Shown one piece after another: positions 10,546 through 16,428 of a stretch of 64,000 nt of DNA (positions within the stretch are counted from its first letter, which is position 1; each line of letters begins with the position of its first letter). The position numbers were made by a program, and so were the translations under genes. The notes under the pieces are model-generated. The model had not been told where the DNA came from, ran no database searches, and saw only the letters and a program-made list of their open reading frames with translations. Where the stretch lies: positions 271,223 through 335,222 of the IMG/VR virus record IMGVR_UViG_3300000976_000008; one strand, 5' to 3'. The DNA comes from a virus (lineage: Duplodnaviria > Heunggongvirae > Uroviricota > Caudoviricetes).

Positions 10546-10847
10546 ATATCTTCCTTGTCAACTAATTGATCATTGTGAAGATAATAACGCTTGCGACAAT
10601 ATTTGCAGATATCGGTATTCTTACCTTTAATCTTCTGCTTGTTCCAGTTGCCGTTGCCATCTCTTCTGACATGCCCCATATTGGTGCAAATATCGTCAAT
10701 AGTTTCCCACTTTACGGGCTTGGGTGGAAGTCCCGACCAAACATGATTTTTGACTGGAATTTCTGAGATCGCTTTCTCGATAACAGTGACGATCCCATCT
10801 ATACATTCGTCATCATCAATATCGAATATTAGCGTTACCTGTCGCAT
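10542..10847 (-). CDS. hypothetical protein with CxxC
   Basis: ORF; ICKYC. Confidence 0.6.
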   Translation of the reverse strand: MRQVTLIFDIDDDECIDGIVTVIEKAISEIPVKNHVWSGLPPKPVKWETIDDICTNMGHVRRDGNGNWNKQKIKGKNTDICKYCRKRYYLHNDQLVDKEDI

Positions 10848-11248
10848 TGATGTAAACCGTTCTCATGGAAGTATTTGTTTCTCTTGCGAAACAAAATTTT
10901 GCCACCTTTGGATCTTTTAGCCCAAAAGCCCCATTTTCTGCGTTCAGGACCTGTGATCATCAGAGTCCAGCAGCCACCTTCATTTACCTTTACGGTATGT
11001 TTGTGTTCTGCTTTAAAGCTCTTAATTGATCCTCTTTTTAATACGGTGTCACCTTCTGGGCTTTGATCAGTATATCCGCCTTTGAGGACGATTGTTGTAT
11101 AATCCCAGGGATGATCGTGCGGTGCCCTATCGTCATCGCTGGCTAACCAGTGATGTAGGCGTAGTGAGAATCATCCGAATTCTAGACACCATCGACGAAG
11201 GTAAACACCGTCGACGCATTTAAGTTCTTGACCCCAGATTATCTTCAT
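10835..11248 (-). CDS. cupin-fold protein with in-frame TGA at codon 26 (11171-11173); absent from ORF track
   Basis: MKIIWGQELKCVDGVYLRRWCLEFG*FSLRLHHWLASDDDRAPHDHPWDYTTIVLKGGY...HKHTV...WTLMITGPERRKWGFW; GAGGA SD, ATGA overlap, HDHPW cupin motif. Confidence 0.85.
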
Positions 11249-11412
11249 CTCTTCCTCTTCTTGTTCCGTTTGTTCTTACGTTTCTTTTGTTTGAGTTCTA
11301 CTGGTTCCAATCCCTCACATAAAGGACATTCTTCGTAAGAACTACCATAATCTCCATAAATCGTTGGCGAGTGTATGACTCCTCTTCCCTCGCATTTCGC
11401 ACATTTTGGCAT
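11245..11412 (-). CDS. small CxxCxGxG Zn-finger protein with basic tail
   Basis: MPKCAKCEGRG...CPLCEG...KKRKR, translated by hand. Confidence 0.65.
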   Translation of the reverse strand: MPKCAKCEGRGVIHSPTIYGDYGSSYEECPLCEGLEPVELKQKKRKNKRNKKRKR

Positions 11413-12008
11413 TGTTTGTCTTTATCATGATCAGTCCCTCACAAGGACAAGTGAGAATTACGCTACCATACGTGGCAGGTGGTGGATCTCTCTTTACAAG
11501 CTCACCTCTACCATCGCATATCGTGCATTCAAGAGCCATTATCCACATTTCCCGTTGCAAGCGGTAGAGCAGAGAGTGCAAGATTCTACTTGTAATCTTC
11601 TACGATGATCATAGTAACAAGATTTCGAACAGTAGTCAGTTGCATCTTCTCTGTTCTTCTTCCAATCGCACTTAGGATTCTTACAATTATTCGGGCCAGT
11701 TTTGTGCATATGTTGTCCTAATCGCGGCGTACTAGAAAAACACGGTCCTCTTCACGTTTCGCAATTCGCCAATTCCCTGGCGGTATGGGAATTCTGATGT
11801 CTTCCCAGTTTGCAGAATCGTTAGTGTCTCCGATTAGCACATTAGATTTGTTGCTAACTGAGAGATTCCCATATTTTGCAGGAACGTATGGTGAATATGA
11901 AGTAACTTTCTCTGATGGTGTGCTCATAACGTTCCAAAACATTTCGAATAATTAGGTGCACGTTTTCAGCAAATTGACCGTATTGTTCTTTTTGACAGGC
12001 AACCGACA

Positions 12009-12410
12009 GTGAAACCGGTGCCGCTTTTAACAGTCTTTTTGACAGAGGAACGACGAATGAGTGTTGCAGAATTGGCTTATGTTGCTGAAACAACCCGCAA
12101 AGACCGAGCACACAATATTGCTATTGCGATATTGAAGCTGAAGGATGGGGAGAATCATGGTGCTAGGACTCGCATGATCAGGAGAGTTATCCGAGAAGAG
12201 TTGGGACTGCCAATTCTTGAGGGTGAAGCGATGAATGGTGACCTCAGAGCACATGGAGATGCTCTCGGAAAGCACGAATTGTTCCTCGATGTTCTGAGAA
12301 AGACGGTTCAAGGAAAAACTGAGCGAGTAGTGATGTTCACTGAAGAGAACGTCAAAAAGTGCGAAGAATACCTTGAGAAGAACGGCGAAGATCAAGAGAA
12401 GATTCTCTAG
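12009..12410 (+). CDS. hypothetical protein
   Basis: ORF; GAGGA SD before internal ATG near 12057. Confidence 0.65.
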   Translation: MKPVPLLTVFLTEERRMSVAELAYVAETTRKDRAHNIAIAILKLKDGENHGARTRMIRRVIREELGLPILEGEAMNGDLRAHGDALGKHELFLDVLRKTVQGKTERVVMFTEENVKKCEEYLEKNGEDQEKIL

Positions 12411-12490
12411 TTCTAAGACGGCACGGATGCCGGTGGGGGAGGTTCATAGGCTCATCATATGAACCTCCCCTTTCCTTTCTTTTATTTAAA

Positions 12491-12658
12491 TCCGCGACCT
12501 GGGACTCGAACCGCAGGATCTCCCCCATGTTATCACTCCTAGCTCTGACGTTGCAATCATCAGAATTCGGTGTGGCAAATTGGATCGTAAAGCCTAACGT
12601 ACGCTGCTTCACGTTCCTCTCCGCTGGGCGGTGCTTTAACCAACTAAGCTAGTCGCGG
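12491..12658 (-). ncRNA. oversized tRNA-like RNA (168 nt) with about 95-nt insertion in the anticodon loop
   Basis: acceptor CCGCGAC/GTCGCGG+A, D-arm GCTT-AGTTGGTTA-AAGC, T-loop TTCGAGT; no canonical anticodon loop. Confidence 0.75.
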
Positions 12659-12898
12659 GTGGCGAGCTGCCTACAGAGCAGACAACTCTAAGTTTCGAAT
12701 TAAGTCTCCCTACACCTACTTGGGACTATGGTCTGTGGGACCGTGTGCCTTAGGGGTTTCGGTCAAAATGGTTGGCTTCACACCTTTTGGGTCGATCCAC
12801 CAACCATCATCTACCTTAAATTTCCCATCATGGGCAGAGGTAATCCACTTTCTCGCGAAAGCGGTCACGATTATGCCATCCGTTGCACTATCCCGTTC

Positions 12899-14417: not shown

Positions 14418-14702
14418 TTAGATGTGAGAAATATAAAAACTTTCATGTCCATCCTGTTCGATTTCAAACTGATCAGAAAGGTCTGTCAGAAATTCGATAA
14501 CTTCATCTCCGTCCCATTCACGTTCCCCAAAAACACTATGTCCTGCTGAACCAGCATAAAGATGTGCAGCAGAAGCTTCTCCATTCGTATCTTGTATTAC
14601 TTGCTTTATTGCAGCATTTGCCCATGCTATGAATCGTCTTTTCTCTGCTTGTGGATCTGGCTTGTTTAGGGCATGAGTTAATCTATTTTCGAATACATTC
14701 AT
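14418..14702 (-). CDS. small acidic hypothetical protein
   Basis: ORF with GAGA SD. Confidence 0.6.
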   Translation of the reverse strand: MNVFENRLTHALNKPDPQAEKRRFIAWANAAIKQVIQDTNGEASAAHLYAGSAGHSVFGEREWDGDEVIEFLTDLSDQFEIEQDGHESFYISHI

Positions 14703-14779
14703 GACAATATCTCTCGGCGAAAGAAGAGGAGGAATTCATCTACATTCTGTTGTGAAAAGCAGATTCCTGTTAAATCAGA

Positions 14780-15292
14780 TCATTTTGGCCAACTATCCAT
14801 AAATTCGTCAGCCTTACACCATCCCTGTATAGGGTAGGATTTGATTCCGTCCTTTGTATCTTCAATTCGGATCATCTTTTGACCCACACCGAATTCGATT
14901 ATTGATCCTCGACGCCTCATCCCATGGATCATTGTGCAAGCACTACCGAAAGCAGTCATAATCGGTGTCTCAAATGGTAATTTGTTTACGACACCTATAG
15001 GGATGGTTCTTTCTAATTCGGAGAAACTTTCGAAATCATGCATTATCTGGCTGATTTCTAGTTTATCCTCTACTCGAATCATAGTCGCTCTGGCTTGCTC
15101 GTAATCTTGACGGAGTGGGTTACACTTCCACCCATTCCACCCCCAAGCCATCATGCTGCCAGTGCAACCATCTGTTTTACATTTTCGTTGGTCTTCGTAT
15201 GGCTCATCAGTATGAAGTGCCTCAAAACCACAACCCCAGCATTTCAAGACGTCTTTCTTAAAATGCTCGACTTCTCTTGAATCAAATGCCAT
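14780..15292 (-). CDS. Zn-ribbon-containing hypothetical protein
   Basis: start at TAATG overlap; CWGCG...CKTDGC. Confidence 0.65.
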   Translation of the reverse strand: MAFDSREVEHFKKDVLKCWGCGFEALHTDEPYEDQRKCKTDGCTGSMMAWGWNGWKCNPLRQDYEQARATMIRVEDKLEISQIMHDFESFSELERTIPIGVVNKLPFETPIMTAFGSACTMIHGMRRRGSIIEFGVGQKMIRIEDTKDGIKSYPIQGWCKADEFMDSWPK

Positions 15293-15711
15293 TAGTTCTC
15301 GCGTGTGATTGCTGCTGGGTCGACTTGGAGCTTGTCTATGTAGGTTTGGAATTGTGCTGCGGATACTGATCGCAGTTGTTGAAGTTCCCAAGTCTTGGAA
15401 TCTGGATTGGTTGGTTTGAATTGCCCACTCCACATAGTGCAGGAGACTGTTGCCTTCTTACCAATCTCCATGTTGATTTCAACGGCTTTGACAGTTGAGA
15501 TCCATTCGCCTTTTTCGTTGAGGACGAGAAGTTGCCCTGGTTTTGCGTCGCACACGATCATGAAGACTGATTTGCCTGTTGATATGGTGGACTTCTGAGT
15601 TGATGTTGGAGTCTTTGTCGCTGTCTTCTCTTGTGCGGCTACAGTGGTGAATTGTGAAAGAAGAACTGATGCGAGAATGACTGCGGAACAAACGACTGCT
15701 AGCTTCTTCAT
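15292..15711 (-). CDS. secreted hypothetical protein
   Basis: MKKLAVVCSAVILASVLLSQFTTVAAQ signal peptide; GGAG SD. Confidence 0.75.
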   Translation of the reverse strand: MKKLAVVCSAVILASVLLSQFTTVAAQEKTATKTPTSTQKSTISTGKSVFMIVCDAKPGQLLVLNEKGEWISTVKAVEINMEIGKKATVSCTMWSGQFKPTNPDSKTWELQQLRSVSAAQFQTYIDKLQVDPAAITREN

Positions 15712-16217
15712 GAGAGGCTCCTGGGATAGAATTGGTTCAGAGATCAAATACGTGAAAGGCTCGCAGCAAATTATCACTGCGAGCCTTTCTAGCATTATTG
15801 GGCGGGGATCATGGAGCCTTCATGTTGATTATCTTTGGCTCTTACCCCTATAACATTCTCTTTTATTTTCTTTTTATTTGAAACTTTTCTTTTCTTGGTC
15901 TCTTTGACTTGCTCTTGGTCTCTTTGACTTCTCTCAGCGTCTCTGTCTCTCTAAGATACTTTCCCAAACTTCTTTCTGCGAGATGTCGGCCATCCAGAAG
16001 TTTGAGAGGCGGGGTCATAGGGCACTCTGGCCATTCAGCCGCTTAGTGTGCCCTCACCCTTTTATACCTTCACGGGTGGGTGGTGCTCTCGTTCTCATTT
16101 AGTAAGCCTCGCAATTCATTAATGCCTAAGTTCTAATGAGTCATCAGCCCGGCGATCACAGTATCACCCCGAACCTCGTCGCCGCCGTAGCGGACTTCCA
16201 CACTTCGAATACATGAG

Positions 16218-16292
16218 AGGGGCCAGGGGGATTCGAACCCCCGACGAACGCTGGTTTGAAATCAGCCGCTCTGACCACTGAGCTATGGCCCC
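16218..16292 (-). tRNA. tRNA-Sup(UCA), opal suppressor, U73
   Basis: GGGGCCA/TGGCCCC, D-arm GCTC/GAGC, loop TT-TCA-AA, GGGGG-TTCGAAT-CCCCC. Confidence 0.9.
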
Positions 16293-16351
16293 TTGATACC
16301 AATTTGTTGCGAAAAGAGAAACCCCGTTAATTTATATTTTACTACATTAAG

Positions 16352-16428
16352 CAGGGCCAGGGGGATTCGAACCCCCGCAAGACAGGAATTTGAAATTCCC
16401 CGCTCTAGCCAGACTGAGCTATGGCCCC
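16352..16428 (-). tRNA. tRNA-Sup(UCA), opal suppressor, G73 (Trp-like)
   Basis: GGGGCCA/TGGCCCT, GGGAA-TTTCAAA-TTCCT, canonical T-arm; short variable region, so not tRNA-Sec. Confidence 0.92.

Follow-up and report, generated by a model that had tools for sequence, protein, structure and literature searches.

What do suppressor tRNAs decode in a phage that keeps the standard genetic code? The question is raised by a 64,000-nucleotide stretch of the Caudoviricetes record IMGVR_UViG_3300000976_000008 (positions 271,223 to 335,222; referred to below, at its full length, as the window), in which two tRNA genes with the anticodon UCA, tRNA(UCA), lie upstream and on the same strand of three reading frames interrupted by UGA: a gene for a PTH2-like hydrolase, a nine-codon leader and a cupin gene. 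An earlier note, made from the sequence of the window alone, had reported this combination, and ARAGORN, Rfam and the sequence itself find all of its parts in place, with the tRNAs at 16217-16428. No target has been known for the suppressor tRNAs that jumbo phages with the standard code carry, and the locus and its relatives now point to specific ones. Our favoured explanation, which comparison of sequences leads us to hold with moderate confidence, is that the locus is the opal version of a suppressor-tRNA-gated gene set of jumbo phages, with translation of the gated genes depending on the suppressor.

A standard-code genome with two ordinary tRNA(UCA) genes

The virus record that holds the window is a single one of 408,349 bp, with 43% G+C and 23 tRNA genes. 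Tiling the whole genome with open reading frames (ORFs) scored for codon usage covered 86.5% of it under code 11, and reading one stop as sense gave 79.5% (TGA), 84.1% (TAG) or 81.4% (TAA). TGA is the commonest terminator, at the end of 213 of the 557 called genes (38%); it is not depleted, unlike the expectation for code 4 or 25, and a genome-wide scan for TGA-bridged coding segments and pairs showed no excess over those bridged by TAA or TAG. Genome-wide recoding of TGA (code 4 or 25) was therefore rejected, since code 11 tiles better and the counts of bridged ORFs are flat for all three stops, in agreement with the view of the earlier note that the genome is not globally recoded.

Both tRNA(UCA) genes exceed the Rfam gathering score for tRNA (29 bits). 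Their acceptor and T arms are common to the two, and they differ in the D loop, the anticodon stem and the discriminator base (G73 in one, U73 in the other). The label 'SeC' that ARAGORN gives to both reflects the anticodon only, because the genes are of ordinary length (76 and 78 nt), have short variable loops and align as an ordinary cloverleaf to RF00005; a SelC tRNA would measure about 95 nt, its variable arm long and its acceptor stem 8 bp. For comparison we used a set of five TGA-type loci, namely the window and four other independent metagenomic assemblies (L024, L026, L068 and L069). L068, a 46-kb contig, likewise has two tRNA(UCA) genes, one of the G73 and one of the U73 type, 3.2 kb upstream of its PTH2-like gene, and the D-arm of its U73-type gene is identical to that of tRNA(UCA) 2 of the window. 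An exact-pattern scan of viral contigs for the UCA tRNA gave no match, and neither did megablast when the region was compared with phage records.

A promoter-like site upstream of the first tRNA is a weak lead only, promoter-like sites in the region being fewer than in shuffles; no terminator-like site was seen on the minus strand between the tRNAs and position 10835, which is itself weak evidence. Between its two tRNA(UCA) genes, at 6254-6280, L068 has a mini-ORF strongly led by a Shine–Dalgarno (SD) sequence, ATG ATT CGC GGC CCC TAA (M-I-R-G-P-stop), a counterpart of which was not seen between the two tRNAs of the window. ARAGORN also calls two tandem tRNA-Trp(CCA) genes at 22987-23062 and 23070-23145 (minus strand); both fall below the Rfam gathering score, whereas five further tRNAs of that 20-kb stretch reach it, and both might be tRNA-like elements of a degenerate or unusual kind.

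Conserved protein lies between the TGA and the next start

The PTH2-like ORF opens with an SD-like GAAGGA and an ATG (13792-13790), runs through seven more codons (MLTQTKDL) to its TGA and continues in frame to a TAG at 13432-13430. Past the TGA it reads L-P-V-D-E-E-Y-G-G-H-V-Y-V, and the first start allowed by code 11, GTG 13729, encodes the second V of that run. Homologues align from YGGHVYV on, between the TGA and this GTG; several have their initial M two or three codons ahead of YGGHVYV, and one (P0105) has W at or adjoining the TGA position. In a structural model (pLDDT, the predicted local distance difference test score, 92) the first β-strand comprises residues 19-25 (H-V-Y-V-I-T-R), so that initiation at GTG 13729 would halve it. 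The model resembles MJ0051, Bit1, AF2095 and Sulfolobus solfataricus Pth2 in the PDB (template modelling scores 0.64-0.72, E down to 1.6e-6), from which the predicted fold of the protein is the α/β fold of archaeal and eukaryotic Pth2. No Pfam family matched the window protein at E ≤ 0.01, PF01981 included, and hence we call it PTH2-like; some of its homologues do have a precomputed PF01981 match. Five residues invariant in the family (Q32, Q36, H39, D91 and T97) are compatible with an active site, peptidyl-tRNA hydrolysis being a putative activity.

The four relatives repeat this arrangement, with 3-8 codons from the TGA to the PTH2-like domain and no standard start ahead of Y/H-G-G-H. Codons around the TGA vary among the five, and YGGH(V/I)Y shows synonymous differences, as expected of translated sequence.

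The same holds for the cupin gene. Seventy codons past its TGA are devoid of ATG, GTG and TTG, and the most conserved motif of the family, HHW..SDD.R..HDHPW, falls within this start-less stretch. About 98 homologues align across the TGA at full length, and at the TGA column 10 of the 33 sequences aligned there have W, the rest having L, F, I, Y, Q or P. The protein matches phrog_4786 over residues 13-124 (E = 7e-36), 'cysteine dioxygenase' activity being annotation only, and its neighbours in the PDB are Mn/Fe cupins, including TM1459 and ergothioneine dioxygenase. Three histidines (H44, H46 and H84) are invariant, and the cupin barrel with His ligands is thus present. In the model (pLDDT 95) residues 1-34 form three strands of the barrel, for which reason the part before the TGA would be structurally required, and the UGA itself sits between two barrel strands.

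The TGA at codon 26 is kept in L068 in a context of differing codons (GAC TTT GGC TGA TTC, against GAA TTC GGA TGA TTC in the window). This contig holds the complete set: two tRNA(UCA) genes, the TGA-gated PTH2-like gene, the TGA-containing leader, a 136-aa gene and the cupin gene interrupted at codon 26. The whole set in L068, together with the TGAs kept in other assemblies, excludes assembly error and private nonsense mutation. The conservation of the TGAs and their co-occurrence with UCA tRNAs, for which the earlier note had proposed a check in related phages, are borne out, with the TGAs of the PTH2-like gene and the leader in 5/5 loci and both tRNA(UCA) genes and the cupin TGA in L068, and one outcome that would have refuted the note, that the TGAs are assembly errors or strain-specific nonsense, is contradicted by the same codons in independent assemblies.

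Besides L068 there are three independent cases of a gated cupin gene: G000, the genome that holds the window (TGA at codon 26), G001 and L027. G001 (IMGVR_UViG_3300021514_000002) is a 363-kb standard-code phage whose genome has two tRNA(CUA) genes and whose cupin gene has TAG at codon 5, the position of a conserved W5; in L027 the ATG overlaps the upstream stop (ATGA), and TAG is codon 4, followed by the conserved I-I-W-G-Q. Most other cupin homologues are uninterrupted, those of cultured phages included. When the window genome was compared with G001 by tblastn with stops masked, only the cupin gene spanned a stop, and a PTH2-like gene was not found in G001. That genome has 45 tRNA genes and, at 233835-234219, a gene like that of transfer-messenger RNA in permuted form, with the tag AANDAFFEETRLAA (ARAGORN).

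Stop codon and suppressor anticodon change together in distant jumbo phages

A tblastn search of deposited phage genomes found the PTH2-like domain in 35 records, mostly of jumbo phages, and in several of them an in-frame stop follows the first few codons (Table 1). Where both could be read, in nine phages, the stop matches the suppressor anticodon in every one: TAG goes with CUA and TGA with UCA. In seven of the nine, stop and anticodon were both read here, and the anticodons of the other two come from the literature, the authors of the XacN1 genome having described two CUA suppressor tRNAs whose targets they sought and did not find (PMC5852040), and one UCA suppressor having been reported for Atu_ph07 (PMC6102473). 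The suppressor lies mostly 0.5-8 kb from the PTH2-like gene and on the same strand. RaK2 has no in-frame stop in its gene and no suppressor among eight nearby tRNAs. The central claim of the earlier note, that the interrupted frames need UGA readthrough and are tied to the tRNA(UCA) genes, gains weight from all of this: the TGAs are conserved, required protein lies between the TGA and the next start, and the stop tracks the anticodon.

No start codon follows the TAG of the PTH2-like gene in Serratia phage BF, fHe-Yen9-04 or GAP32, and in XacN1, Xoo-sp13 and RAS14 the PTH2-like domain follows a different domain to which it is fused. Because of the in-frame stop, the gene is unannotated in Serratia phage BF, fHe-Yen9-04 and several pEa_SNUABM phages, and in GAP32, ME3, Atu_ph07 and RAS14 it is annotated from a downstream start and loses its conserved N-terminus. 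Deposited records so affected are KY630187 (286080-286409), LT960551 (289112-289441), JN882285 (GAP32_397), KU935715 (ME3_195), MF403008 (AUZ95035.1) and OP752703 (WAX21615.1). LR756501 has, besides the TAG at codon 3, a second in-frame TAG inside the PTH2-like domain (at about codon 37, near position 10100) and may use TAG as sense more widely.

A UGA-containing leader that resembles an arrest-peptide attenuator

The third interrupted frame is the leader ATG CTA TGA CCT TGT AGA GAC CCG CCT TAG (nine codons and a stop). In all five loci of the TGA-type set such a leader stands directly ahead of a gene of about 140 codons, with TGA at codon 3 and R-x-P-P before its stop: RDPP in the window, RAPP in two relatives and RGPP in the other two. 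Across the genome there is a single occurrence of the pattern M-x(1-2)-TGA-x(2-5)-R-x-P-P-stop, where Markov-1 simulated genomes lead one to expect 0.025. From the stop of the leader a predicted helix reaches the GGAG and the spacer that belong to the following gene; single-sequence folds and duplexes give it in 5/5 loci at −14 to −17 kcal/mol, and its arms differ in sequence among the five with complementarity kept, that is, they covary. Two features of an attenuator of the RAPP type are thus present, a small upstream ORF that ends in R-x-P-P and a predicted SD-masking helix adjoining the putative stall site. The geometry is known from ermC, secM and mifM, where a stalled ribosome opens a helix.

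The presumed target, a 141-aa gene, found no match in Pfam, PHROGs or Atlas, nor in a tblastn search of phages, and has only six homologues. Of the known ribosome-arrest motifs of this class none is stronger than RAPP and RGPP (PMC12992588; PMC7897499; PMC10951233); the variant RDPP is partly permissive for arrest, and proteomes avoid it (PMC12992588).

Table 1. Positions of the features of the window, and openings of the interrupted frames in its relatives and in distant phages
Genome	Feature	Position	Strand	Description
Window	Promoter-like site	16529..16556	-	TTGACA-16-TAAATT; about 100 nt upstream of first tRNA; consensus scan, 10/12 matches
Window	tRNA(UCA) 1	16351..16428	-	78 nt, G1-U72 pair, discriminator G73; ARAGORN; Rfam RF00005 58.2 bits
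Window	tRNA(UCA) 2	16217..16292	-	76 nt, discriminator U73; ARAGORN; Rfam RF00005 63.4 bits
Window	PTH2-fold hydrolase-like gene	13430..13792	-	120 codons from SD-led ATG; in-frame TGA is codon 9
Window	In-frame TGA of PTH2-like gene	13766..13768	-	Context CTG TGA C; TGA also in L024, L026, L068, L069
Window	Leader ORF	13396..13425	-	M-L-UGA-P-C-R-D-P-P-stop; own SD-like AAGGA; TGA at 13419-13417, codon 3
Window	Helix 5' arm (predicted)	13382..13399	-	Begins in leader stop codon; minimum-free-energy fold and duplex, −16.8 kcal/mol
Window	Helix 3' arm (predicted)	13324..13342	-	SD (GGAG), spacer, first base of start codon of next gene
Window	141-aa gene, presumed leader target	12899..13324	-	Always after leader in relatives; 45% identity to L024 8678-9100
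Window	Cupin gene, phrog_4786 'cysteine dioxygenase'	10835..11248	-	137 codons; TGA codon 26 at 11171-11173
Window	Openings of PTH2-like gene and leader			MLTQTKDL then TGA; leader ML*PCRDPP*
L024	Openings of PTH2-like gene and leader			ATG GAC ATG TGA; leader ML*FTRGPP*
L026	Openings of PTH2-like gene and leader			MKNLNDL then TGA; leader ML*RDRAPP*
L069	Openings of PTH2-like gene and leader			MKTSNDL then TGA; leader ML*RLCRGPP*
L068	Openings of PTH2-like gene and leader			MTWT then TGA; leader ML*PTRAPP*
Serratia phage BF	Opening of PTH2-like gene			M-T-H-TAG; tRNA(CUA) 3.3 kb downstream, same strand
Yersinia phage fHe-Yen9-04	Opening of PTH2-like gene			M-S-H-TAG; gene unannotated, no start codon past TAG
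GAP32	Opening of PTH2-like gene			M-A-Q-TAG; tRNA(CUA) 3 kb away
Acinetobacter phage ME3	Opening of PTH2-like gene			M-T-TAG; tRNA(CUA) 0.45 kb upstream
LR756511 (huge uncultured phage, 595 kb)	Opening of PTH2-like gene			M-T-H-TAG; tRNA(CUA) within 8 kb
LR756501 (L067; huge uncultured phage, 735 kb)	Opening of PTH2-like gene			M-S-TAG; tRNA(CUA) 2.2 kb away
XacN1, Xoo-sp13, RAS14	Opening of long ORF			M-K(-K)-stop before conserved N-terminus; TAG in XacN1 and Xoo-sp13
Atu_ph07	Opening of PTH2-like gene			M-I-G-E-H-F-TGA, then PTH2 domain; annotated coding sequence truncated

Extent of the proposed gating in the genome

The earlier note had also proposed a scan of the full genome for more TGA-bridged ORFs and for release factors. 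That scan was run, and in the 408-kb genome neither came to light: analysis of gaps, of start-less coding leaders and of SD sequences with ATG and stop upstream of called genes gave nothing convincing beyond the three units, in a hunt made noisy by antisense frames, and no gene with a release-factor domain was found. Outside the window, at 184773-185033 of G000, a start-less stretch of 129 codons after a TGA contains a repeated L-T-G-(V/I)-C-P-S-Q-Q-R-G-R-R-F-P segment and may be repeated DNA rather than coding sequence. At about 7270 of the window (minus strand) and about 19400 of L068, a methyltransferase gene ends in TGA with the next ORF in the same frame a few codons on, and tblastn similarity between the two loci continues across the stop; readthrough at this junction was set aside, the two genes being out of frame in L024, so that we are probably dealing with plain adjacency.

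How the gate would work, and what weighs against it

The anatomy of the locus, its conservation and the shared change of stop and anticodon are seen in the sequences; from them we infer expression and charging of the tRNAs, their part in the decoding, stalling of ribosomes on the leader and a regulatory role for the arrangement. The earlier note went further, with a conditional gate, a part for impaired release factor 2 and a coupling of peptidyl-tRNA rescue to the state of termination, each of which may apply here. Once the upstream tRNA(UCA) genes, on the same strand, had been made and charged, UGA would be decoded in three contexts. Readthrough would yield the whole PTH2-like enzyme and, at codon 26, a completed cupin barrel. 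In the leader, decoding of UGA would let the ribosome reach the RAPP-like arrest motif on the 5' arm of the helix, thereby unmasking the ribosome-binding site of the 141-aa gene and turning it on; termination at codon 3 would leave the ribosome short of the helix and the helix closed. The yield of full-length product would be proportional to UGA decoding, for which the tRNA(UCA) encoded by the phage itself is the most likely agent; the arrangement could time expression or sense the dosage of suppression. The PTH2-like enzyme might clear peptidyl-tRNA and other by-products of readthrough, or limit the suppressor, since its modelled fold suggests that it acts on the ester bond of peptidyl- or aminoacyl-tRNA.

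The context of the gating codons fits a gate of this kind. A C comes next after 7 of the 12 gating UGAs in the five relatives but after only 27 of the 213 terminal TGAs (Fisher p = 4.5e-4, for sites that are not independent). UGA-C is a weak termination context in E. coli.

Several observations weigh against suppressor-dependent gating. With TGA ending 38% of genes, many proteins of phage and host would be lengthened if suppression were efficient, and back-up stops are not enriched after the TGA-ending genes; suppression should therefore be weak, timed or context-dependent, or else the tRNAs do something else. GTG 13729 could serve as the start of the PTH2-like gene if the window is taken alone. 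The cupin gene of G001 lies 237 kb from its tRNA(CUA) genes. Fold energies of the whole leader region are no better than those of shuffles (z = −1.2, −0.15 and −1.3). The suppressor tRNAs of different phages are dissimilar in sequence, and their pairing with the stop is thus not one inherited cassette; judged from these sequences, the pairing is functional instead. Finally, the nine-residue leader is far shorter than the characterised RAPP arrest peptides (PMC12992588), which also require the region adjacent to the motif on its N-terminal side (PMC12992588).

An elaboration in which the locus forms a homeostat would accommodate the abundance of TGA-ended genes, though we think it unlikely. Here the UGA/RxPP leader would gauge decoding and turn on the 141-aa gene, and the PTH2-like enzyme, itself made by readthrough, would act back on the suppressor, by deacylation or by clearing peptidyl-suppressor-tRNA and readthrough products, and so keep suppression at a level useful to the phage while sparing the TGA-ended genes; the G73 and U73 tRNAs would insert two different amino acids.

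Alternative explanations

The alternative that survives best, although it too strikes us as doubtful, dispenses with the tRNAs. An early, weak UGA-C would gauge the efficiency of termination or the drop-off of peptidyl-tRNA, with the suppressor tRNAs a separate feature; the signal could be readthrough by the near-cognate tRNA-Trp of the host when release factor 2 is limiting, or the pre-stop ORFs could act as 'minigenes', comparable with prfB or the lambda bar minigenes. Such a sensor would explain the C that follows the UGA at 7 of the 12 gating sites, pre-stop ORFs of only 2-8 codons, a gated enzyme with a peptidyl-tRNA hydrolase fold and a genome in which no release-factor gene was found. 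It does not explain why the type of stop tracks the suppressor anticodon in all nine phages where both were read, why the suppressor is mostly found on the same strand at a distance of 0.5-8 kb or why RaK2 is without both the stop and, among its nearby tRNAs, a suppressor. Moreover, the cupin UGA, at codon 26, is not that of a minigene.

A second alternative is neutral tolerance: the presence of a suppressor would make changes from TGG to TGA or TAG survivable, and stops would drift into a few dispensable genes without any regulatory role. We consider this improbable. Several of the stops do sit where some or most homologues have W, and acquisition of the suppressor has been proposed to precede the build-up of in-frame stops (Borges et al., 10.1101/2021.08.26.457843). 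The stops are, however, limited to a few of about 550 genes and always lie near the 5' end, and the same two families are affected repeatedly, in phages as distant as 37% identity. The same codon is kept in five relatives while neighbouring codons change, the UGA of the leader stands within what looks like a purpose-built attenuator, and the depletion of the terminator that belongs to the model of Borges et al. is not seen for TGA.

The remaining alternative, that the TGAs reflect assembly errors, pseudogenes, a genome-wide code 4 or 25 or insertion of selenocysteine, could appeal to the errors that a single metagenomic assembly can hold and to the ARAGORN label 'SeC', but is barely credible given identical TGAs in five or more independent assemblies and in-frame stops in cultured phage records, the best tiling under code 11, tRNAs of 76-78 nt with short variable loops that fit the general tRNA model rather than SelC, and a cupin site at which homologues have W, L or F but no C.

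Implications and comparison with known systems

If suppressor-dependent gating is correct, the locus would represent natural, gene-specific control by a private suppressor tRNA in a genome that still uses the codon in question as its main terminator, and nonsense suppression would be a new input for the arrest-peptide class of attenuators. It would also call for corrected annotation, the PTH2-like gene being missing or truncated in many deposited records of jumbo phages. Several carriers are cultured (Atu_ph07, Serratia phage BF, GAP32, ME3 and XacN1), and the question is therefore directly testable, with Atu_ph07 as the opal and the XacN1 group as the amber test systems. The earlier note did not recognise the combination as a described system, and our literature searches found no description either; for the pairing of a UGA- or UAG-gated gene with a matching suppressor this holds for the full-text literature, subscription journals being mostly outside its coverage.

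A close cellular likeness is prfB, the gene for release factor 2, in which an early in-frame UGA is passed by a +1 frameshift on CUU-UGA-C with the help of an internal SD sequence. There too an early UGA (often UGA-C) after a short N-terminus ties the full-length yield to termination at UGA. The frames of the window, by contrast, continue in frame 0, their products are not release factors and a matching suppressor tRNA is encoded alongside; a programmed frameshift of the prfB type was rejected, because conserved protein runs on in frame 0 past the TGA.

Phages with recoded stops (code 4 or code 15: the crAss-like, Lak, Agate and Jade phages) encode suppressor tRNAs that decode in-frame stops in a standard-code host, and timing of expression has been proposed for them (10.1101/2021.08.26.457843). 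They differ from the window in having dozens to hundreds of in-frame stops in late, structural and lysis genes, with the recoded stop depleted as a terminator, whereas the window keeps the standard code with TGA as its commonest terminator and interrupts a handful of small genes once each, at codons 3-26. The gated genes of the window are tRNA- or translation-related, plus a cupin, in place of the lysis genes of recoded phages.

Like the arrest peptides ApdA, ApdP and SecM (RAGP), the leader of the window is a small upstream ORF with an R-(A/G/D)-P-P type of ending and a helix that would mask the next ribosome-binding site (PMC7897499, PMC10951233, PMC12992588). Protein export is what the known peptides sense, and they are longer and depend on a region upstream; the leader of the window has nine codons with UGA at codon 3, its stalling is putative and its input would be nonsense suppression.

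Close in biology are XacN1 (PMC5852040) and Atu_ph07 (PMC6102473), standard-code jumbo phages with orphan CUA or UCA suppressors, both of which carry a gated PTH2-type gene. The papers that describe them sought extensions past annotated stops or counted stops, and named no target (PMC5852040, PMC6102473); what we propose as the target is a stop at the N-terminus, ahead of a gene that is unannotated or truncated. Finally, a synthetic feed-forward gate has been built in which a gene with an early amber codon is expressed only with a co-expressed suppressor tRNA (PMC7969014). That gate was engineered in E. coli, and the gene set of the window would be its natural counterpart.

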